This document shows positions 2,798-40,300 of a stretch of 64,000 nucleotides of DNA, piece by piece (position 1 is the first letter of the stretch; every line of letters starts with the position of its first letter). The position numbers and the translations under genes are program-made. The notes below the pieces were generated by a model. The model was not told the origin of the DNA, ran no database searches, and saw only the letters and a list, made by a program, of their open reading frames with translations. The stretch lies in NCBI GenBank assembly GCA_016187485.1, contig JACPJO010000001.1, positions 6,195-70,194 on the forward strand, read 5' to 3'. The DNA is from Candidatus Uhrbacteria bacterium. Lineage in GTDB: Bacteria; Patescibacteriota; Patescibacteriia; UBA9934; UBA10169.

Positions 2798-3973
2798 ATG
2801 AAAACGCTTTCAGTTGCGGAGTATCTGGAACTTGTAAATGAGACGCTTTCGCTTATTCCCACAACGGAGTTTTTGGTGGAGGGTGAGGTGGCCGAGTACC
2901 GCGTGTCTCAACAGAAGTGGATACATTTTTTACTCAAGGACGAAAAGAAGGAGGCATGCGTGCCGTGCTTTGCGACGACCTATCAGCTGTCGGTGCCGCT
3001 CGAGGACGGTATGCGCGTGCAGGTGGCAGGGTATGCCAGAATTTTTGAACGGTTTGGGAAGTTCAGTCTGAACGTCCGCCAGGTGACTCCCGTGGGAGAG
3101 GGGGCGCTGCGAAAGGCGTATGAACTTCTGAAAAAGAAACTTGAAGAAGAGGGGCTGTTTGATGTGGGACGCAAGCGGGAGCCCCCGCGCTTTCCTCGTA
3201 CCGTTGGCTTGCTTACCTCACCGGAAGCGGCGGCGTATACGGACTTTGTGCGTATTGCGAAGAATCGTTGGGCCGGCTCCGTGATTGAACTGTATCCGGT
3301 ACACGTGCAAGGAGCGCGGGCGGTGGAGAACATTTTGGAGGCGTTTGCGTATTTCCAGACGCTCTCTGTAAAGGAGCGTCCCGACATTCTTGTCTTAACA
3401 CGCGGCGGCGGATCGTTCGAGGACTTACACGCATTCAATGATGAACGCGTAGCGCGCGCCGTGTTCGGTTCTCCCGTTGCTGTTGTCGTGGGTGTGGGGC
3501 ACGAACGTGACGAATCTTTATGTGACTTTGTGGCTGACGTGCGCGCTTCAACGCCTTCGAACGCTGCCGAGATGGTCTTTCCCGATCGAAGAGCGGTCGC
3601 CGCCGAGATAGAATCGTCTGTGCGTGTATGGGACAGCCGACTTCACCGATGGGTGGAGGAGCGCCATGTTGTATTGGCTCGCGCCGGATCTGCCACCACG
3701 GTTTTCTTTGAACAGCTCTCCTCCCGTCTCCTGCATAACACGAAACGTCTTGGGCACGTGTTTTGGCCCGTGATGGCGCGGGCGCGAGAACGAGTGGAAC
3801 ATTTAGAGCGTATCCTTAAGCAAAGCAGCCCAAAACGCATTCTTGCGCGTGGCTACAGCATCGTACGACTTCATGGGGGTGTGCTTAAAGACGCGCGCGC
3901 GCTTGTGAAAGGGGAAGCCGTTCAGGTACAATTGGCGCACGGATCGTTCGACGCAGAGGTGACCTCTCTATGA
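2798..3973 (+). CDS. xseA: Exodeoxyribonuclease VII large subunit
   Basis: OB-fold N-terminus; RGGGSFEDL and ASTPSNAAE motifs. Confidence 0.85.
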   Translation: MKTLSVAEYLELVNETLSLIPTTEFLVEGEVAEYRVSQQKWIHFLLKDEKKEACVPCFATTYQLSVPLEDGMRVQVAGYARIFERFGKFSLNVRQVTPVGEGALRKAYELLKKKLEEEGLFDVGRKREPPRFPRTVGLLTSPEAAAYTDFVRIAKNRWAGSVIELYPVHVQGARAVENILEAFAYFQTLSVKERPDILVLTRGGGSFEDLHAFNDERVARAVFGSPVAVVVGVGHERDESLCDFVADVRASTPSNAAEMVFPDRRAVAAEIESSVRVWDSRLHRWVEERHVVLARAGSATTVFFEQLSSRLLHNTKRLGHVFWPVMARARERVEHLERILKQSSPKRILARGYSIVRLHGGVLKDARALVKGEAVQVQLAHGSFDAEVTSL

Positions 3974-21574: not shown

Positions 21575-21691
21575 AAGGGGTGGGAGATCCGGCTCCTGTG
21601 GTCGAGCAGCGCTCGGCCACACGAGGGGGTCCTGAAGAAGAGTGTGCTTCAGGTCACGAACGGAGGGAGAAGGAACGGGGCGCCTGGGTGC

Positions 21692-22483
21692 CTAGTGAAG
21701 GACGAGGCTCGTCACCAGGTGGTCGAGCCCGATGGGCTGACGGTCGGGGTCGGACGCGACGGGGGCCACGGCGGCCTCGGGCTTCTTGTGCCCGTGCCGA
21801 CGGTTCCGGCGGCGGCCGTTGTTCTCGTCCTGCGCGACCGGGGACGCGGACTCGGCGGTCTTGGTGACCATCGGGGCCATACCCTTGACGGTCGCTTCGG
21901 TCTCGCTCTTGTCGGCGAGGAAAATCTCGAGGCGCCGGTCGGTCTCCTCCACCCACTGCGCGTTCTCGCGGCACGGATTTTCCCGCAGCGCTCGGAGCGC
22001 GTCCCGCTTGCGGCTGCGCAGCAGGGCCTCCATGTTCTCGAACGAGCGGCCGAAGACCTGCTCGAGGGACTCGCCGTCGCGGGCCACCCGCGTGCAGTAG
22101 GTGATGCGCAGCTGCTCCATGCGGTCGTCGCCGGCCGCGGCGATCTTCTCCTCGACGATCTTCTTGCGGTGCGCCTCGCTCTCGAGCCGCTCGGCGGCCG
22201 CCTTGATCTCGGCGTCCACCTGCGCGTGCTCCTCCGCGACGCGCTCGCAGAGCCGCGCCGCGAGCGAGGGGTTCACCTGGCGGAAGTGCTCGATGCTCTC
22301 GTTGAGGATCTGAAGCGGCGACCAGGTCGTCATCTCGGCGCCGCCGCCGTTGGCCGCCGCGAACCGCCGGAGCAGCCCTTCGATCCTCGTCATGTGCAGC
22401 GAGTCGCTGCACATGACGAGCTTGCGGGCGGTCTCGGCGAGCTCGCGGAACGAGGGCCGGGGGGAACGGGTGCTGTCGGACAT
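21692..22483 (-). CDS. hypothetical protein A of GC-rich island (Glu/Ala/Arg-rich, helical, basic tail)
   Basis: ATG at 22483-22481, TAG at 21694-21692; coding-like composition; no recognisable domain. Confidence 0.45.
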   Translation of the reverse strand: MSDSTRSPRPSFRELAETARKLVMCSDSLHMTRIEGLLRRFAAANGGGAEMTTWSPLQILNESIEHFRQVNPSLAARLCERVAEEHAQVDAEIKAAAERLESEAHRKKIVEEKIAAAGDDRMEQLRITYCTRVARDGESLEQVFGRSFENMEALLRSRKRDALRALRENPCRENAQWVEETDRRLEIFLADKSETEATVKGMAPMVTKTAESASPVAQDENNGRRRNRRHGHKKPEAAVAPVASDPDRQPIGLDHLVTSLVLH

Positions 22484-22826
22484 GTTCGTCTCCAGTGTGG
22501 CGCATCCGCGTGGGATGAACGCCGGGGGTTTGGGGTTCCTCACACCATTCTTAGGGGGTTGAGGGGTCCAGTGACATGCCGAAGCAGTATGGACCCATGA
22601 AACCCGGGCATGTGCATCAAGCGAGAAATCCCGGTTGAAGCACTTGGGTTTCACACCTCTCGTTCTGTCATATGGCAGTTCGGGAGGTGGGCTCTCTCTC
22701 CTCCTAAGAATGGTGGGAGGAACAATCTGGCCTGTGAGCGCGAGTGGGGACTCACGCGCACGGGGGGATTGGGGCCGGCGCAAGGTTTTCACCATGGGGC
22801 CCCGAGAAAGAAACTGATGGAAGGAA

Positions 22827-24110
22827 CTACTCGTCACGCAGCGCGCGGGGAGCGGCGCGGCGCGGACCCGGGGCGTTGCGCTTGGCAAGCGCTGCCTCGA
22901 TCTCGCGCTTCATCTCTTCGTCGACCGTGGGCGTGGGGGTGGGCTCTGCCACGGGGGTGCCGGCGGCGCGGCGGGCGGCGGCGCGGCGGGCGATGTCACC
23001 CATGACCGTGCTGCCGGCACTCGCACTCCGGTGGGCTTCCGAGTGCTCCCGCCGCTCCCGCACGAACTCACTCAACGCGTTCTTGGCGTCGAGCATGTCC
23101 ATGTGTGCGTTGGGGTGGCGGCTCTCGGTGTAGTGACGGATCCGACTTTCGAGGATCCGCTCCACGTCCCGCGGTTGGTAGCCGCGGATGCGGTCGAGGC
23201 TGTCCTCGGTCCGTCCGACCGCGACCTGCCACTTGCGCAGCCAGCCCCACAGGGGGTCCTGGTCGGCGCCGTCCACGTACGTCGTCCTCTCTTCTTCGCG
23301 TCCACGCTGCTCGGCCTTCTGCGCCCGTCGCTCTTCGCGTGCCTTGTTCCTGCGCTTCGTGTCCTCACCGAGGGCCTTCATGGCCTCCTCTTCGAGGTTG
23401 TTGAGGCAGGACCAGTCGCCGTTGCCGCTCACGACCTGCCGGGTCATGGTCTCCGCGATGGCCCAGTAGAGCTGGAGGGTGGAGACTTGCGCGGTCGGGG
23501 CGCCAATCCAGATCGGACGGCCGTCGCCGGCGTCCGTCTGCATGGCGGCCTCGAGGAGGAGCGTGCGAAGCGCGTTGCGGAGCTCGGGGTGCCGCTTTCG
23601 CAGCTCCACGATCCGGCGTGTCCTCCAGCCGCTCGTGATGCGGTGGTTCTTCCACCACGCCACGGGCTGGAGTGACGCCAGTCGCTCGCGCGGATCCTCA
23701 TCCGCCAGGGGCGGGTATTTCGTCTCCCACCACTGCGGCTGGTCCTCCGTCGGCTGGTCGTTGTGGGGGTCCACGGGGGTGAAGATGACGCGCGTGCCCT
23801 TGCAGGACGCTCGGCCCGTCACCTTCGTGCCCTCCACGCGCTCGCTCTGGATGGACTCGCCGACCTTGATTGCGACCTTCTCCTCGTAGTACGAGCTGGC
23901 CGCCAGCCATTCCTCGAAGCCCTGACGTTCGAGGAGGAGGGCTGCGGTTGGCCCGCTGCCCACTCCGCGGTCGGTGTCCCACGACTCCTCGTTGGGGTGG
24001 CAGACGATGTTCGCCACGCCACGGGTCAGGGGACGGATCTCTTCCCACCCCTGCTTCTCGCTGGCCGTCTGTGGCACGTTGCCGCGCCGGGAACTGCTGG
24101 TGCGTCCCAT
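22827..24110 (-). CDS. hypothetical protein B of GC-rich island (427 aa, Trp-rich N-terminal half, charged C-terminal half)
   Basis: AGGAGG 8 nt upstream of the ATG at 24110; no recognisable domain. Confidence 0.5.
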   Translation of the reverse strand: MGRTSSSRRGNVPQTASEKQGWEEIRPLTRGVANIVCHPNEESWDTDRGVGSGPTAALLLERQGFEEWLAASSYYEEKVAIKVGESIQSERVEGTKVTGRASCKGTRVIFTPVDPHNDQPTEDQPQWWETKYPPLADEDPRERLASLQPVAWWKNHRITSGWRTRRIVELRKRHPELRNALRTLLLEAAMQTDAGDGRPIWIGAPTAQVSTLQLYWAIAETMTRQVVSGNGDWSCLNNLEEEAMKALGEDTKRRNKAREERRAQKAEQRGREEERTTYVDGADQDPLWGWLRKWQVAVGRTEDSLDRIRGYQPRDVERILESRIRHYTESRHPNAHMDMLDAKNALSEFVRERREHSEAHRSASAGSTVMGDIARRAAARRAAGTPVAEPTPTPTVDEEMKREIEAALAKRNAPGPRRAAPRALRDE

Positions 24111-31765: not shown

Positions 31766-31841
31766 GCCGTTGTAGCTCAGTTGGTAGAGCACGTCCATGG
31801 TAAGGACGAGGTCACCGGTTCGATCCCGGTCAACGGCTCCA
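31766..31841 (+). tRNA. tRNA-Thr(GGT)
   Basis: Hand-folded cloverleaf: acceptor GCCGTTG/CAACGGC, anticodon loop ATGGTAA, T-arm ACCGG-TTCGATC-CCGGT, encoded CCA. Confidence 0.85.
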
Positions 31842-31908
31842 CTCCGCTCTTTGAGCTTCGTTAGGAGTATTCCTAACGAGACCCGAAGGGTGAAGGGAGA
31901 CAACATAC

Positions 31909-31993
31909 GGGTAGGTACTCAAGTGGTCAACGAGGGCAGACTGTAAATCTGCTGGCTCCGCCTTCGAAGGTTCGAATCCTTCCCTACCCACCA
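31909..31993 (+). tRNA. tRNA-Tyr(GTA), long variable arm
   Basis: Acceptor GGGTAGG/CCTACCC, anticodon stem-loop GCAGA-CTGTAAA-TCTGC, T-arm GAAGG-TTCGAAT-CCTTC, CCA encoded. Confidence 0.85.
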
Positions 31994-32120
31994 GCTTCCT
32001 TTCCCGACAGACTTTCGTTCAGGCTTCTCCTTGTCGCCTTCACTTTCGTCTGTCGGCCGGTCGCTTTCGCCAAGCTCTGCTTGGCGAGGAAAGAAAAGAA
32101 TTGGGTCGGAATTGCTAAAC

Positions 32121-32225
32121 GCCGCCTTAGCTCAGCTGGTACCCGCCGTCCAGCAGCAAAGCTGCAGGACAGGCGGGCCCGCCGGCACGCCCGGAGGGCT
32201 GTGCGGCGGGGAGCAACGGTTTTGT
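32121..32225 (+). pseudogene. 5' tRNA-Thr-like fragment interrupted by a ~69-nt GC-rich hairpin inserted in the D-loop
   Basis: GCCGCCTTAGCTCAGCTGGTA [insert] GAGCAACGGTTTTGT copies positions 1-38 of the downstream tRNA-Thr(TGT), then diverges with no anticodon-stem partner. Confidence 0.45.
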
Positions 32226-32241
32226 GGGCTAGTTAGCACGT

Positions 32242-32317
32242 GCCGAGATAGCTCAGCTGGTAGAGCAACGGTTTTGTAAACCGTAGGTCACGGGTTCGAG
32301 TCCCGTTCTCGGCTCCA
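32242..32317 (+). tRNA. tRNA-Thr(TGT)
   Basis: Acceptor GCCGAGA/TCTCGGC, anticodon loop TTTGTAA, T-arm ACGGG-TTCGAGT-CCCGT, CCA encoded. Confidence 0.85.
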
Positions 32318-32527: not shown

Positions 32528-34243
32528 CTAATCGTGGCCAGTTACACGCATCACTTCCTCGAGCGAGGTGACACCATCGCGCAATTTGGCGAGCGCGCTC
32601 ACACGCAACGTCTTCATGCCACCGCGAACGGCTTCACGGCGAAGCTGCTCGGTCGTGGCACCGGCGGCGATCTGCTCGCACAGGTCGGAGGTGAGCGCCA
32701 TGATCTCGTAGATGGCGATGCGGCCCATGTACCCGGTCTCGTTGCAGGCGGGGCAGCCAACGGCGCGCAGGCAGGTGTACTCGTCTGACTCGTCAGACGG
32801 CACTCCCAGGTCGAGCAGGGTCTGGCGCGGAACGTCTTGGGGCTCGCGGCAGGTCTCGCACAGACGCCGCACGAGACGCTGGGCGATGATCATCCGCACG
32901 CACGCGGCGATCTCGAAGGCGGGCACACCCATCTCCGTCAGACGCGCGATCGTGCTCGGCGCATCGTTGGTGTGCAGGGTGGAGAGGACCAGATGCCCGG
33001 TCATCGCGGCCTGCACGGCCGTCTCCGCCGTCTCGAAGTCCCGGATCTCACCCACGAGGATCACGTCCGGATCCAGACGCAGGAACGACCGCAGTGCGGC
33101 GGCGAACGTGAGTCCTGCCTCCACGTTCACTTCCGTCTGCTTGATTCCGAAGATGTCGTACTCGACCGGCTGTTCCACGGTGAGGATGTTCGTCCCTACG
33201 ACGTTGATGTCGGAGAGCGCGGAGTAGAGCGTGGTCGTCTTGCCCGACCCCGTCGGACCCGTCACGAGGACCATGCCACTTGGAGCATGCAGGGCGGCAC
33301 GGAACCCCTCGAGCTCTGAGGACTCCAATCCGAGCTTGGTCATGTCGAGCTGGAGCTTGCTCTGGTCGAGAATCCGGATGACCACGTACTCGCCGTGCTG
33401 GGTGGGAATAACTCCCACGCGCAGGTCGATGTTTCTCCTGCCGCCGAGCTTGAGCTTGATCCGGCCATCCTGGGGCTTCCGGCGCTCGGAGATGTCCAGG
33501 CGCGCCAAGATCTTCACGCGTGAGATGATCGCGTTGCGGTATTTGAACGGAGGCTTGAGCACGTCGTAGAGCACTCCGTCGATGCGGAACCGGACGCGCA
33601 CCTGGCGCTCGAAGGGCTCGATGTGGATGTCGCTCGCGCGGTTCTTGATCGCGCTTGCCAGGATGAAGTTGACGAGCCTGATAACCGGTGCTTCGCCGGC
33701 GACTTCTTCAAGTTCTGCCGCGGTGACATCTTCCTCGGCATCCTTCTCCACTTCCAGTCCGTCGTCTGACAGCCCCAGTTCTTCCAGAGCGTTCTTGAAC
33801 GTCTTGGCGGAGAGGTAGCAACGATCGATGAGAGCGTTGATCTGGCTTTCGGGAGCCACCACGACTTCGAGCTTGTGGCCGGTCTTGACCTCGATGTCGC
33901 GTCGCGCGACGAGATCCCCTGGGTCGACCATGACAACGGTCAAAGTGTTGCCCGACAGACTCAGGGGCACCATGCGGTAACGGTCCACGAGCATGCGCGG
34001 AATGAGCTTCAACACCTTGGAATCCGGTGAAGCCTCCGAGAGGTCTACGGGCTGGACGTCGAACTGCCTCCTCAACGCGTGGACGATTGCGTTCTCGTCG
34101 ATCACGCCGTAGCGCACGAGCTCGTAGCTCAGAGGTCCGCCGGTCTGCTTGACGCGGTCCAGGGCTTCCTGGAGCTGAAGAGGAGAGATGTCCTTGTTGT
34201 GCACGAGCAACTCGCCAAGACGGGTATCAGAAGCTGATATCAT
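32528..34243 (-). CDS. pilB: Type IV pilus assembly / type II secretion ATPase PilB/GspE
   Basis: N-terminal GSPII_E domain; Walker A GPTGSGKTT; Asp box; His box; tetra-Cys CETC...CPAC. Confidence 0.85.
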   Translation of the reverse strand: MISASDTRLGELLVHNKDISPLQLQEALDRVKQTGGPLSYELVRYGVIDENAIVHALRRQFDVQPVDLSEASPDSKVLKLIPRMLVDRYRMVPLSLSGNTLTVVMVDPGDLVARRDIEVKTGHKLEVVVAPESQINALIDRCYLSAKTFKNALEELGLSDDGLEVEKDAEEDVTAAELEEVAGEAPVIRLVNFILASAIKNRASDIHIEPFERQVRVRFRIDGVLYDVLKPPFKYRNAIISRVKILARLDISERRKPQDGRIKLKLGGRRNIDLRVGVIPTQHGEYVVIRILDQSKLQLDMTKLGLESSELEGFRAALHAPSGMVLVTGPTGSGKTTTLYSALSDINVVGTNILTVEQPVEYDIFGIKQTEVNVEAGLTFAAALRSFLRLDPDVILVGEIRDFETAETAVQAAMTGHLVLSTLHTNDAPSTIARLTEMGVPAFEIAACVRMIIAQRLVRRLCETCREPQDVPRQTLLDLGVPSDESDEYTCLRAVGCPACNETGYMGRIAIYEIMALTSDLCEQIAAGATTEQLRREAVRGGMKTLRVSALAKLRDGVTSLEEVMRVTGHD

Positions 34244-36855: not shown

Positions 36856-37140
36856 CTAGGCGAGAAGCGCGTCTTTTGCAGCCTTCGCGACGCGGAATTT
36901 GAGCACGGTCTTTGCAGGGATTTGAATCTGCTCGCCCGTTGCAGGGTTGCGGCCCATGCGAGCTTCACGGCGTTTCTTCACGAGTTTGCCCAGTCCAGCA
37001 AACGAACACTCTCCACTGTGCTTTACCTCTGCGTATGCGACGTCCACCATTGCGGCAAGTACCGCGGCGACATCTTTCTTTGCCACGCCGCTCTTTTCCG
37101 CGATGGCAGCGAGCATTTGAGACTTGGTCATTTTAGCCAT
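36856..37140 (-). CDS. hup: DNA-binding protein HU
   Basis: Full-length similarity (MAKMTKSQMLAAIAEKSG...GRNPATGE..IPA). Confidence 0.85.
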   Translation of the reverse strand: MAKMTKSQMLAAIAEKSGVAKKDVAAVLAAMVDVAYAEVKHSGECSFAGLGKLVKKRREARMGRNPATGEQIQIPAKTVLKFRVAKAAKDALLA

Positions 37141-37234
37141 AGACCTAAGTTAAAAGTAATAAGTACCGGCCTAGTATAGCACATTTCCCCAAAAAACAAG
37201 GGGTTTGTGGATAGCTATGCTATACTGGTCTTCT

Positions 37235-38518
37235 ATGAAGCATCTTTTTTCCTTCATGGTTCTTGGTCTATTCCTCTTTGCTCGACCGGTCTTTGCGACG
37301 GTTGTCGGCTCGTTTGTGGGGTTGGAAGAAGATGTGCAATTCGATGCTATCTGGGTCTACGAAAATGACGATATTACGCTAATTTTAGACCCGATAAATG
37401 CGGGTGCCAGCCTCTATACAATCTTTGTTGGCGACGCGGATGCAGCCGGGTGTACCGTCCATTTGACGCATGTTTCAAGCGGGATAGCATCTCCGGCCGA
37501 GTATATCGCGCTTGGCACGGTTATCGAGTTAAGCTCTATCCAGATCGGGATTTTCGAGATCAATACGAACACGACGGTTCCGCGCTGTCACGTGGGCTAT
37601 AACTTTACTACTTTGGGACCGGTGGATGGGGCGCCCGCTGCTCCAAACGAGCCGGAAGAGGCGCCGCCGGTGAGTGAGCCAGAGAGCGAAGACGAGCCCG
37701 AAGAGGTGTCTCAAGAAATTACAACATGCGCAGATACGGACGGCGGGAGTGAACGCTATGTGGCGGGAGCCATCACGCACTCGGGCAACGCGACGTTTGC
37801 GGGGGTGCCCAATCCTGCAGCGGACTTCTGTCTTAACGCGAACATCCTCCGTGAATATTATTGTACGCCCAACGAAGTGAACGGCTCACATGTCTCAACA
37901 ATCACATGCGCCAACGGATGTGCCGCGGGACGATGTCTCACCGATGCGGATGTGGCGCTTGCCGAACCGGACCCAGAAGAAGATCTTGGTCCCTTCGTTT
38001 CCTGCACCGACTCCGATGGGGGCGTTTCGCCGCATCAAGCTGGTTCGGTGAGTGCCGAGTATGATCGCGCTCTACCGCAAACGTACGTGGATATTTGTAG
38101 TGGAGATACGCTTACCGAGTACGCGTGCAATGCTCATGCGGGGGAAGTGCAGACGGTTTCGTATACGTGTCCCGGCGGCTGTAACGATGGGAAGTGTCTT
38201 ACGAATATGTGTCAGGATGACGACGGCGGAGACAAAAAATTCATCTTCGGACGCATGACGCACGACTTGGCCACGCTTCCGTCGCCTGTGTTTGACACGT
38301 GCACATCGAACAACAAAATCATGGAGTACACCTGCAATGCGAACTTCAACGACGGAAATCCGGAAAATGATAATGCCCGTCCGCGCACGTGCGCGCTCGG
38401 CTGTCTTACGGTGACATCGGACGCGGGGACGGTGAGCCGGTGTAAAAAGTTGGCCGATCTGTCCATCGCCGTTTCAGTGCAAAGTGCATTTTCGTGGCTG
38501 GTGAATCTGTTTAATTAG
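37235..38518 (+). CDS. Secreted protein with three tandem six-cysteine modules (C-x-D-x-D-G-G ... EY-x-C ... C-x-x-G-C-x-x-G-x-C-L)
   Basis: Signal peptide MKHLFSFMVLGLFLFARPVFA; beta-rich N-domain; acidic Pro/Glu linker; three ~70-aa Cys repeats aligned by eye. Confidence 0.5.
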   Translation: MKHLFSFMVLGLFLFARPVFATVVGSFVGLEEDVQFDAIWVYENDDITLILDPINAGASLYTIFVGDADAAGCTVHLTHVSSGIASPAEYIALGTVIELSSIQIGIFEINTNTTVPRCHVGYNFTTLGPVDGAPAAPNEPEEAPPVSEPESEDEPEEVSQEITTCADTDGGSERYVAGAITHSGNATFAGVPNPAADFCLNANILREYYCTPNEVNGSHVSTITCANGCAAGRCLTDADVALAEPDPEEDLGPFVSCTDSDGGVSPHQAGSVSAEYDRALPQTYVDICSGDTLTEYACNAHAGEVQTVSYTCPGGCNDGKCLTNMCQDDDGGDKKFIFGRMTHDLATLPSPVFDTCTSNNKIMEYTCNANFNDGNPENDNARPRTCALGCLTVTSDAGTVSRCKKLADLSIAVSVQSAFSWLVNLFN

Positions 38519-38551
38519 TTGCTGAGTTACCTTGTTGCCGAGTGGTTCTGT

Positions 38552-40300
38552 ATGAACAAACGAGTTCTGCAAATTTATGTTGCGCATGCTCTGCGCTACC
38601 CCTGGAGCGTGACGGCTCTTTTGTTTGTCATTGTTGCTGCGCAAGCGCTTCACTTACTGGTTCCGTGGCTCTACAAACGCTTCTTTGATCTTCTTTTTTC
38701 CGGCGCAACGCCCGCCGTCCTTGCCCCGCAGCTTATCCAGATTCTTTTCTCTGTCTTTTTCTTAACACTTGGCGGATGGTTTTTGTGGCGTGCGTCTGGA
38801 TTTCTCACCGCCGTCCTTCACCCGAAGATCACCAAAGATCTTTACGAAACGGCGTTCCGTTACCTCTTGCACCACTCGTACCGGTTCTTTGCAAATCACT
38901 TTGGTGGGTCGTTGGTCCGCAAGGTCGGGCGTTTCACGCATGCGTTCCATAATCTTGCCGATCAACTACAGTGGAAGCTGATCCCGATTACCGTCACGAC
39001 GATCGGTGTTTTTATTGCATTGTTCCTCCGTCACCCGACTCTTGCGTGGATCCTCTTCGGTTGGCTGGTGGTCTTTATTCTGATGAACGCCGTTATTTCC
39101 AACTGGAAGCTTCGCTACGATAAGGAACGATCGGCGATTGACTCGGAAGTGACCGGGGCGCTCGCGGATGCGCTCACCAACAGTATTACGGTCAAGACTT
39201 TCGCGGGGTATACATATGAGGAAAGATTATTTCAGAATATTCTGGAGCGCTTTCGGCGCATCTGGAAGTTTTGCTGGAATTTGGCCGAGATCAACATGGC
39301 TGTGCAGACGTTTCTCATGATTCTGCTTGAACTTGGCATGATGTGGATGGCGGTATCACTGTGGACAAAGGGCCTACTGACAGCCGGCGACTTTGCGCTT
39401 TTGCAGGCATATCTTATCCGCATCATTGATACGATGTGGGACTTGGGACACGTATTCCGTGACATCTACGAGCAAGTTGCTGATGCGTCCGAAATGGCGG
39501 AGATCATTGATACGACGCCGGAAGTAGGGGACAAACCCAGAGCTAAGGCTCTTGCGGTGCGGCACGGGGAAATCCAGTTTGATCACGTAGTCTTCAGCTA
39601 CAGGAAGACGCGGCCGATTTTGAATGACCTAGACTTAACGATCAAGGCCGGTGAGAAAGTGGCGCTTGTGGGACCGTCGGGAGCAGGGAAGTCTACGGTT
39701 ACGAAACTCATGTTCCGATTCTTCGATCTGGATGCGGGCGCCATTCGCATCGATGGACAATCTGTGGCGGATGTGACGCTCGAGAGTTTGTGGGAGCATA
39801 TCGGTTTGGTGCCGCAAGAACCGATTCTTTTCCACAGGACGCTCATGGAGAATATTCGCTATGGACGGCGTACGGCCACGGACGAGGAGGTCGTCCAGGC
39901 GGCGAAGAAGGCACGATGCCACGAATTTATTGTAGCTCTGCCGAATGGGTACGGCACCTTTGTGGGCGAGCGCGGAGTGAAACTCTCCGGCGGGGAGCGC
40001 CAGCGCGTTGCCATTGCGCGAGCGATTCTCAAAGACGCACCGATTCTCGTGCTTGATGAAGCGACGTCGAGTCTCGACTCGGAATCGGAAGCGATGATTC
40101 AGGAGGCTTTGCGCGCGCTCATGAAGGGAAAAACGACGATGGTTATTGCCCACCGCCTTTCCACCATCATGCAGATGGACAGGATTGTGGTTATGGAGGG
40201 GGGAAAGATGGCGGACGAGGGGACGCATGCCGAGCTTCTCAAACGTCACGGAACCTACAAAAAGCTTTGGGAAATTCAAGCGGGCGGTTTTGTACATTGA
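38552..40300 (+). CDS. ABC transporter, fused permease/ATPase (MsbA-like exporter)
   Basis: 6-TM N-half; Walker A GPSGAGKST; signature LSGGERQRVAIARA; Walker B ILVLDEATS. Confidence 0.85.
   Translation: MNKRVLQIYVAHALRYPWSVTALLFVIVAAQALHLLVPWLYKRFFDLLFSGATPAVLAPQLIQILFSVFFLTLGGWFLWRASGFLTAVLHPKITKDLYETAFRYLLHHSYRFFANHFGGSLVRKVGRFTHAFHNLADQLQWKLIPITVTTIGVFIALFLRHPTLAWILFGWLVVFILMNAVISNWKLRYDKERSAIDSEVTGALADALTNSITVKTFAGYTYEERLFQNILERFRRIWKFCWNLAEINMAVQTFLMILLELGMMWMAVSLWTKGLLTAGDFALLQAYLIRIIDTMWDLGHVFRDIYEQVADASEMAEIIDTTPEVGDKPRAKALAVRHGEIQFDHVVFSYRKTRPILNDLDLTIKAGEKVALVGPSGAGKSTVTKLMFRFFDLDAGAIRIDGQSVADVTLESLWEHIGLVPQEPILFHRTLMENIRYGRRTATDEEVVQAAKKARCHEFIVALPNGYGTFVGERGVKLSGGERQRVAIARAILKDAPILVLDEATSSLDSESEAMIQEALRALMKGKTTMVIAHRLSTIMQMDRIVVMEGGKMADEGTHAELLKRHGTYKKLWEIQAGGFVH

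Follow-up and report, generated by a model that had tools for sequence, protein, structure and literature searches.

Three six-cysteine modules in a hypothetical protein of Candidatus Uhrbacteria belong to a very large family of extracellular repeats that has yet to be named

Near the middle of a 64,000-nucleotide stretch from Candidatus Uhrbacteria bacterium (GenBank assembly GCA_016187485.1, contig JACPJO010000001.1, positions 6,195 to 70,194 of the forward strand; this whole stretch is "the window," and all coordinates below refer to it) lies a gene for a secreted protein in which a block of six cysteines occurs three times, and the question that this locus raises is what the block is and what a protein built from it might do. 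In the mechanical list of open reading frames (ORFs), the frame spans 37205 to 38518 on the + strand, and its ATG at 37235 gives a 427-residue product that is 100% identical to the NCBI entry [quoted passage not shown] The host is a bacterium of the candidate phyla radiation (CPR) in the Patescibacteria/Parcubacteria group, so the CPR origin suggested in a preliminary description, which had been made from the letters of the window alone, matches both the NCBI record and the Patescibacteria placement. That description had also seen the module as something peculiar to one protein. Instead, the module belongs to a very large, unnamed set of extracellular repeats, which is found mostly in DPANN (Diapherotrites, Parvarchaeota, Aenigmarchaeota, Nanoarchaeota, and Nanohaloarchaeota) archaea but also in CPR bacteria.

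The window protein has 20 cysteines, two of which (C73 and C118) lie in its N-terminal domain, while the other 18 fall into three blocks of six: 165/199/210/225/229/234 in module 1, 257/288/298/312/316/321 in module 2, and 326/356/367/386/390/403 in module 3. All three copies contain the cysteines C1 to C6 together with D-x-DGG, D-x-C, and EY-x-C, and their alignment has 17 invariant columns, among them C-x-D-x-DGG, G, D-x-C, EY-x-C, T-C, G-C, and the last C. A hidden Markov model (HMM) was made from 1020 units, none of which came from the window protein or its three close relatives; against this model, the protein scored 130.1 bits (E = 3e-33 when scaled to 1.84 billion sequences), and the best of 1000 shuffles of the module region scored 4.7 bits. 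Given the HMM score, the shuffles, the identity, and the invariant columns, chance or artefact can be excluded. The three six-cysteine repeats with the spacing first proposed for them therefore stand, with the qualification that copy 3 does not fit the pattern C-x-x-G-C-x-x-G-x-C-L-T. A six-frame scan of the 64-kb window found the module in no other ORF and no paralogues.

The size of the family became apparent when a 16-unit profile was searched against 1.84 billion representative sequences clustered at 50% identity, which returned 9,973 proteins at E ≤ 1e-3, 3,460 at E ≤ 1e-10, and 544 at E ≤ 1e-30, with up to 26 matched units in one protein. In the 158 member proteins (1032 full units) from which the family statistics were drawn, 958 of the full units have exactly six cysteines, and the positions that define the module, namely the six cysteines plus D4, D6, G8, G15, D25, E35, and G57, have family frequencies of 90 to 100%. 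A hydropathy screen placed an N-terminal hydrophobic signal or anchor in 138 of the 158 proteins, which, with the n/h/c signal peptide of the window protein, bears out the proposal that the protein is secreted. Modules make up 80 to 90% of many members; module-only proteins occur, as do single-module mini-proteins consisting of a signal or anchor and one module. In long members, the module is accompanied by S_layer_C, CARDB, PKD, InlB B-repeat, and immunoglobulin (Ig)-like domains, one member has been named "PEGA domain-containing" by NCBI, and another (P0005) carries a dockerin (PF00404).

Two further features of member proteins were noted by eye. In CPR and other bacterial ORFs (L014, L048, L070, L021, and L028), the module is single and lies amid SPNGGE...DxSDNYFSI repeats, alongside stretches resembling peptidoglycan-binding domains. 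Many members, both bacterial and archaeal (the latter including P0012, P0033, P0037, P0041, P0043, and P0048), contain a Kazal-like CG(S/C)DGKTY motif, but Pfam reports no Kazal domain in P0012.

To place the family taxonomically, GTDB species representatives were scanned with six 8-residue patterns of a synthetic three-unit consensus, which yielded 70 loci. About 60 of these belong to DPANN or other archaea, 6 to CPR bacteria, and 2 to other bacteria, although the archaeal share is probably inflated, since the consensus was built from the top-scoring members, which are probably archaeal, and the sample is biased toward them. The DPANN loci come from Woesearchaeota, Aenigmarchaeota, Micrarchaeota, Pacearchaeota, Nanoarchaeota, Altiarchaeota, and Iainarchaeota, and the CPR loci come from Saccharibacteria, Nealsonbacteria, Buchananbacteria, and Tagabacteria; some archaeal loci lie in bins labeled Methanosarcinales or Euryarchaeota, and one top match is an uncharacterized protein of Candidatus Bilamarchaeum dharawalense. 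The near absence of the module from the far more numerous ordinary bacterial species is striking. The three-unit consensus had no match in the phage and plasmid records of cultured organisms or in IMG/VR.

Is the module a known domain under another name? Neither the whole protein nor any of its three units matched Pfam-A or NCBIfam even at E ≤ 10, and Pfam-A placed no family over the repeats of ten strong multi-repeat members. When 141 diverse units were scanned one by one, the most frequent Pfam-A match was ADAMTS_CR_2 (8/141 units, best E = 0.003), and the most frequent NCBIfam match was TIGR04201 Myxo_Cys_RPT (10/141, best E = 0.025); this scatter is what cysteine-rich composition alone yields and lies far below the curated cutoffs. 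The 16-unit profile retrieved only unrelated proteins from the PDB sequences (best E = 0.022). Because everything seen with the whole protein, its units, the 16-unit profile, and the 141 units in Pfam-A, NCBIfam, and the PDB sequences was subthreshold noise, we rejected a known domain as the identity of the module. A literature search on cysteine-rich surface repeats in DPANN and CPR organisms, which also covered literal module motifs, found no description of this module.

The same 141 units served as the alignment for an AlphaFold2 model of module 2, which has a mean predicted local distance difference test score (pLDDT) of 95.5 and a predicted template modeling score (pTM) of 0.79. Its predicted fold consists of beta strands throughout, namely six that span at least three residues each, plus a short terminal hairpin. 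In the AlphaFold2 model of the full-length protein, the modules are confident (10-residue blocks mostly at 82 to 95) and have a common strand order, which is unchanged in module 3 despite its longer last hairpin; the linkers are disordered. Consistent folding of the repeat had been put forward in the preliminary description as a check, and all three copies do fold consistently and confidently. Foldseek searches with the pLDDT-95 module model gave a best E of 3.4 against the PDB, with a template modeling score below 0.4, and nothing at E ≤ 1e-3 against BFVD; the full-length model likewise gave nothing at E ≤ 1e-3 against the PDB. Since the comparisons with both structure sets were negative, a known fold was also rejected as the identity of the module. 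The module is thus undescribed, as first supposed, within the libraries searched (Pfam-A, NCBIfam, PDB sequences, and PDB and BFVD structures), and its predicted structure is apparently a new disulfide-rich fold.

Which cysteines pair within this predicted fold was addressed with 1482 unique units pooled from the member proteins and 152 loci, and mean-field direct coupling analysis (DCA) was run on 1441 of them. C4 and C6 are substituted jointly in seven units, compared with two and one units in which either is substituted alone (Fisher P = 1e-16), and C4 is absent and C6 gapped in nine further four-cysteine units; the units without C4 and C6 belong to over a dozen separate proteins. The C4-C6 pair also ranks second among all column pairs in DCA (5.37) and first among the cysteine pairs. 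This joint loss and covariation strongly suggest a C4-C6 disulfide and indirectly uphold the earlier proposal that the module is disulfide stabilized. The next cysteine pairs in DCA are C2-C5 (3.10) and C1-C3 (2.62), which with C4-C6 make a complete, nonoverlapping set, and two units lack both C1 and C3 while keeping C2 and C5. We therefore tentatively assign C2-C5 and C1-C3 disulfides, and 1-3/2-5/4-6 is the map best supported by these sequence statistics. Such a map is not a cystine knot. The "three-disulfide knot" of the preliminary description, with a threaded ring formed by C1-C4, C2-C5, and C3-C6, was rejected because C4 is coupled to C6 rather than to C1.

Several observations weigh against the map or against disulfides altogether. 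The DCA score of C2-C3 (2.61) is almost equal to that of C1-C3, C1 is missing from 23 units in which C3 is present, both C1 and C2 are missing from one unit, and the C2-C5 and C1-C3 pairs rest on very few events. Anoxic habitats are common among the organisms, and disulfides outside the cell depend on dedicated oxidases in such places. MdbA-like and VKOR disulfide machinery is reported to be widespread among CPR bacteria (bioRxiv 10.1101/335083), which makes extracellular disulfides plausible in this organism. The recurrent four-cysteine variants, which retain exactly C1, C2, C3, and C5, the thin pairing evidence for C1-C3 and C2-C5, and the often anoxic habitats would also fit a module in which these four cysteines are ligands of a Cys4 zinc ion or a cluster and C4-C6 is a lone disulfide. 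We consider metal binding of this kind very unlikely, given that the proteins are exported and zinc sites of the Cys4 type are rarely extracellular, that the two units that have lost C1 and C3 together suggest pairs rather than one four-ligand site, that DCA places C2-C5 and C1-C3 directly after C4-C6, and that no zinc-finger family matched consistently.

A different cation site is suggested by the conserved acidic residues of the module. D4, D6, G8, D25, and E35 are found in 90%, 97%, 91%, 99%, and 97% of the family, respectively; D4 and D6 are lost together more often than expected by chance (P = 5e-10), as are D6 and E35 (P = 1e-4), and D6-E35 and G8-E35 have high DCA couplings. The joint loss and covariation of D4, D6, and E35 would fit one shared cation site, most simply a structural Ca2+ site.

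In the window protein, the modules are part of a larger architecture, whose parts are as follows.

37235..38518 (stop codon included), + strand: the whole gene, encoding a secreted multidomain protein of 427 residues (ORF list; NCBI identity).
37235..37297, + strand: predicted Sec-type signal peptide, residues 1 to 21, MKHLFSFMVLGLFLFARPVFA, followed by TVVGSF (read from the sequence by eye; junction in relatives; family hydropathy screen).
37298..37630, + strand: beta-rich head domain, residues 22 to 132, with conserved C73 and C118 (nine predicted strands, pLDDT about 57 to 80).
37631..37723, + strand: first acidic Pro/Glu-rich linker, residues 133 to 163 (sequence; predicted coil, pLDDT below 55).
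37724..37942, + strand: six-cysteine module 1, residues 164 to 236 (58.1 bits against the independent family HMM; pLDDT blocks of 82 to 95).
37943..37999, + strand: second acidic linker, residues 237 to 255, between modules 1 and 2 (sequence; lower pLDDT).
38000..38206, + strand: six-cysteine module 2, residues 256 to 324, the most canonical copy (52.7 bits; single-module AlphaFold2 model with pLDDT 95.5 and pTM 0.79).
38207..38452, + strand: six-cysteine module 3, residues 325 to 406, a divergent terminal type (30.7 bits; NDGNPENDN loop and a 12-residue C5-C6 loop).
38453..38515, + strand: C-terminal tail, residues 407 to 427, with the amphipathic end SAFSWLVNLFN (family tails; hydrophobic moment; short low-pLDDT helix).

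The signal peptide has the n/h/c layout, with V-F-A before the conserved mature N terminus, and homologues keep both the signal peptide and the (T/E)VVGSF junction. The acidic linker described earlier as preceding the repeats is indeed there (residues 133 to 163), although the repeats are not uninterrupted behind it, since the second acidic linker parts copies 1 and 2.

Besides the window protein, the head domain is common only to P0002 (59% identical), P0003 (29%), and P0131/P0169. All four proteins of this subfamily share the layout of signal peptide, head, acidic linkers, two to four modules, divergent terminal module, and tail, with P0003 having further sequence after the tail; the divergent type of terminal module recurs in P0002, P0003, and P0131. 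The modules of the window protein are 60 to 67% identical to their positional counterparts in P0002, compared with 32 to 39% to their sister modules, which implies that the triplication is older than the split between the two species. No relatives of the whole protein were found among GTDB species representatives.

The head domain had no match in Pfam, and a JGI metagenome scan found no relatives of it. A word-indexed protein search with the head alignment was also negative but missed even the three source proteins of the alignment, so it is a weak negative. A four-sequence profile of the head gave one marginal match among PDB sequences, to 2vo8_A (E = 0.046, 16 bits), a 143-residue module of the Clostridium perfringens exo-alpha-sialidase that we take to be a cohesin-type beta sandwich; the match is too weak to use and serves as a lead only. 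It is a curious one beside the dockerin in family member P0005.

The other end of the protein recurs more widely. The last 11 residues, SAFSWLVNLFN, have a hydrophobic moment of 0.45, above that of 98.7% of shuffles, and tails of ~12 to 15 residues with the pattern phi-x-x-phi-phi-x-W-phi-x-x-L-F-G directly follow the last module in ~20 of the 158 members, both archaeal and bacterial. Examples are ...KFLSWLRKVFR, ...WQKFLSWLKKLFG, ...KLVEWFNSLFG, and ...ISFFANLFG, and the motif is found in P0002, P0022, P0072, P0075, P0121, P0156, P0131, P0099, P0049, P0141, and P0008; woesearchaeotal, micrarchaeotal, and altiarchaeotal proteins are among the tail-bearing members. In P0016, the amphipathic motif instead lies at the N terminus, directly after the signal peptide, and in some bacterial members a longer, heptad-like helix takes the place of the tail. 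These tails are similar in pattern and comparable in hydrophobic moment to the membrane-targeting helices of MinD and FtsA, which are also short terminal amphipathic helices, and KFLSWLRKVFR resembles the ...WIKRLNSWLRKEF of FtsA. However, the MinD and FtsA helices work at the membrane from the cytoplasmic side, whereas the family tail belongs to an exported protein, and the window tail has no basic residues. Our hypothesis is that the tail serves as an in-plane membrane anchor or as a docking or oligomerization peptide.

Taken together, these observations lead us to favor, with a probability of about 0.55, a reading of the window protein as a Sec-exported surface protein whose disulfide-locked and probably Ca-stabilized modules serve in adhesion or in a coat. 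The protein would be exported by Sec and placed at the cell surface of Candidatus Uhrbacteria, where its layout would be that of an adhesin, with an orphan beta-sandwich head farthest out, then an acidic linker that gives flexibility, three rigid beads, and a short C-terminal amphipathic tail that may keep the protein attached to the membrane or envelope. The beads would each be an all-beta unit of ~65 to 80 residues with three disulfides, of which C4-C6 is indicated by the substitution statistics and C2-C5 and C1-C3 are presumed, and the conserved acidic set (C-x-D-x-D-G-G, D-x-C, and E-Y-x-C) would form one structural cation site, probably for Ca2+. The module itself would bind or form a coat and would not merely be a spacer. 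Against this reading stand the head domain, which is known from only four sequences and is predicted with moderate pLDDT, and the gene context, which is not conserved and gives no functional hint.

The beads might instead be inert, forming a rigid, protease-resistant stalk or a surface (S)-layer or coat block that keeps other domains at a distance from the cell and has no ligand of its own, with only the head of the window protein being functional. Arrays of up to 26 units that fill up to 90% of some proteins would suit such a role, as would the co-occurrence of modules with S_layer_C and PEGA-annotated proteins and the head-linker-beads-tail layout of the window protein itself. Single-module and module-only proteins, however, would leave a pure spacer without purpose, although they fit a coat role, and the loops of the scaffold are hypervariable while its tyrosines are conserved at 57% each, as is typical of binding surfaces. 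For these reasons, binding or coat function appears preferable to a pure spacer, and we regard inert beads as rather unlikely.

If the modules of this presumed surface protein do bind, recognition of the host envelope would be an attractive guess, given that the family is enriched in DPANN and CPR organisms, whose cultivated members are episymbionts. A bolder version would have module and tail constitute a cross-domain toolkit for host attachment: a Ca2+-dependent, disulfide-locked "velcro" bead whose hypervariable loops recognize and hold host envelopes, which has been transferred between DPANN archaea and CPR bacteria, and whose tail docks into a membrane, possibly that of the host. This combination is speculative, and we think it improbable as a whole; if it were true, host-range determinants in uncultivated nano-organisms could be marked by sequence, and approached, through this family.

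The neighbors of the gene were also considered. As the preliminary description had it, hup lies divergently upstream (36856 to 37140, -), and an ATP-binding cassette (ABC) exporter follows directly (38519 to 40300, +). The exporter, an ABC_membrane plus ABC_tran protein, is an MsbA-like half-transporter without a peptidase domain; its gene begins at the stop codon of the module gene, with no terminator-like site between them. This close arrangement, along with the Kazal-like motif seen by eye in several module-bearing proteins, would be expected if the product were a secreted effector that the exporter transports, be it a toxin, a bacteriocin, or a protease inhibitor. Such an effector is highly improbable, since the protein has a Sec signal peptide of its own, the exporter is of a generic type, Pfam does not support the Kazal reading in P0012, and other genes flank the three relatives whose context is known. 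These are an MFS plus a DnaG-like gene in one case, AAA_14/DUF4143 in another, and Exo_endo_phos plus a glycosyltransferase in the third. Since the neighbors differ in every relative, operon logic with hup or the exporter was rejected, and the two genes carry no functional message. At the locus of the fourth subfamily member, L073 (5950 to 7482, +), an HU gene (Bac_DNA_binding; 3089 to 3370, -) lies ~2.6 kb upstream; this echo of the divergent hup is probably a coincidence, since the other two relatives, which are on short contigs, have no HU gene.

Three side observations on the window can be added. A TATACT hexamer ends 8 nucleotides before the ATG at 37235 (37221 to 37237), and no Shine-Dalgarno sequence is spaced so as to serve this ATG; the mRNA may have no leader or almost none, although the promoter scan called no site at 37221 to 37237, where a -35 match is absent. 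A PilB-type T2SSE/MshEN ATPase of type IV pilus or secretion systems (E = 1e-136) is encoded a few kilobases upstream of the surface protein gene and adjoins a cluster of three tRNA genes (31766 to 32314 and 32528 to 34243, -); type IV pili have been implicated in host attachment by CPR bacteria. Finally, the region at ~21600 to 24100 has a G+C content of 0.678 (22001 to 24000), compared with ~0.54 elsewhere, and contains two long Arg/Glu-rich ORFs (21692 to 22888, -, and 22827 to 24110, -); the block may be of foreign origin or may hold an unusual gene.

DPANN archaea and CPR bacteria make up a large share of microbial diversity, and those in cultivation live attached to other cells; to our knowledge, how they recognize and hold their hosts is largely unknown. 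In these organisms, the six-cysteine module dominates many predicted surface proteins, and it amounts to roughly ten thousand 50%-identity clusters that are absent from Pfam-A and NCBIfam and have no solved or obviously similar structure. For curators, it is a new family to define; for structural biologists, it offers a small disulfide-rich fold that is predicted with confidence and is apparently new; and for symbiosis researchers, it provides concrete surface-protein candidates. The "hypothetical protein" of the window itself becomes a predicted surface protein with a defined modular anatomy.

How, then, does the module compare with systems that are already known? One of the closest likenesses is to the low-density lipoprotein (LDL) receptor class A domain (PF00057), which is also a small extracellular six-cysteine unit in tandem arrays. 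LDL receptor class A domains have disulfides I-III, II-V, and IV-VI and bind Ca2+ in a conserved acidic cluster. Their disulfide pattern is the same as the map proposed here, of which 4-6 is strongly indicated and 2-5 and 1-3 are tentative, resting on few events. However, the LDL receptor class A domain has ~40 residues, with its acidic D-x-S-D-E cluster between C4 and C6, whereas the present module has 65 to 80 residues, is beta-rich, and carries C-x-D-x-D-G-G directly after C1. PF00057 gave no HMM match to the protein or its units, and Foldseek matched the module to no PDB chain. The two also differ in their bearers, which are animals for the class A domain and tiny-genome prokaryotes for the module.

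Calcium-binding epidermal growth factor (cbEGF) domains (PF07645/PF00008) are likewise six-cysteine extracellular repeats, with an N-terminal Ca2+ motif of the D-x-D/N type and a C-terminal C-x-x-G-x-C-like hairpin, and they serve as rigid beads in long proteins of the surface or matrix. EGF domains, however, have disulfides 1-3, 2-4, and 5-6, whereas C4 appears to pair with C6 here, and length and strand layout differ as well. We rejected an EGF-like or cbEGF identity because only 1 of the 141 units had a weak EGF match (E = 0.059) and because C5 and C6 are never lost together in any unit, whereas joint loss of C4 and C6 does occur.

The PKD, CARDB, Big/Ig-like, Kre9_KNH-like, and PEGA domains occupy the same niche as tandem beta modules of S-layer and adhesin-like proteins and occur in the same polypeptides as the six-cysteine module, but they are described, cysteine-free Ig-like sandwiches, whereas the module is smaller, predicted to be disulfide locked, and unnamed. 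TIGR04201 Myxo_Cys_RPT and ADAMTS_CR_2 are also cysteine-rich extracellular repeats, but their matches stay below the cutoffs and involve a minority of units. The kind of object is thus a familiar one, known from LDL receptor class A and cbEGF domains and from tandem beta modules, whereas the family is new to the libraries tested, large, and taxonomically peculiar.

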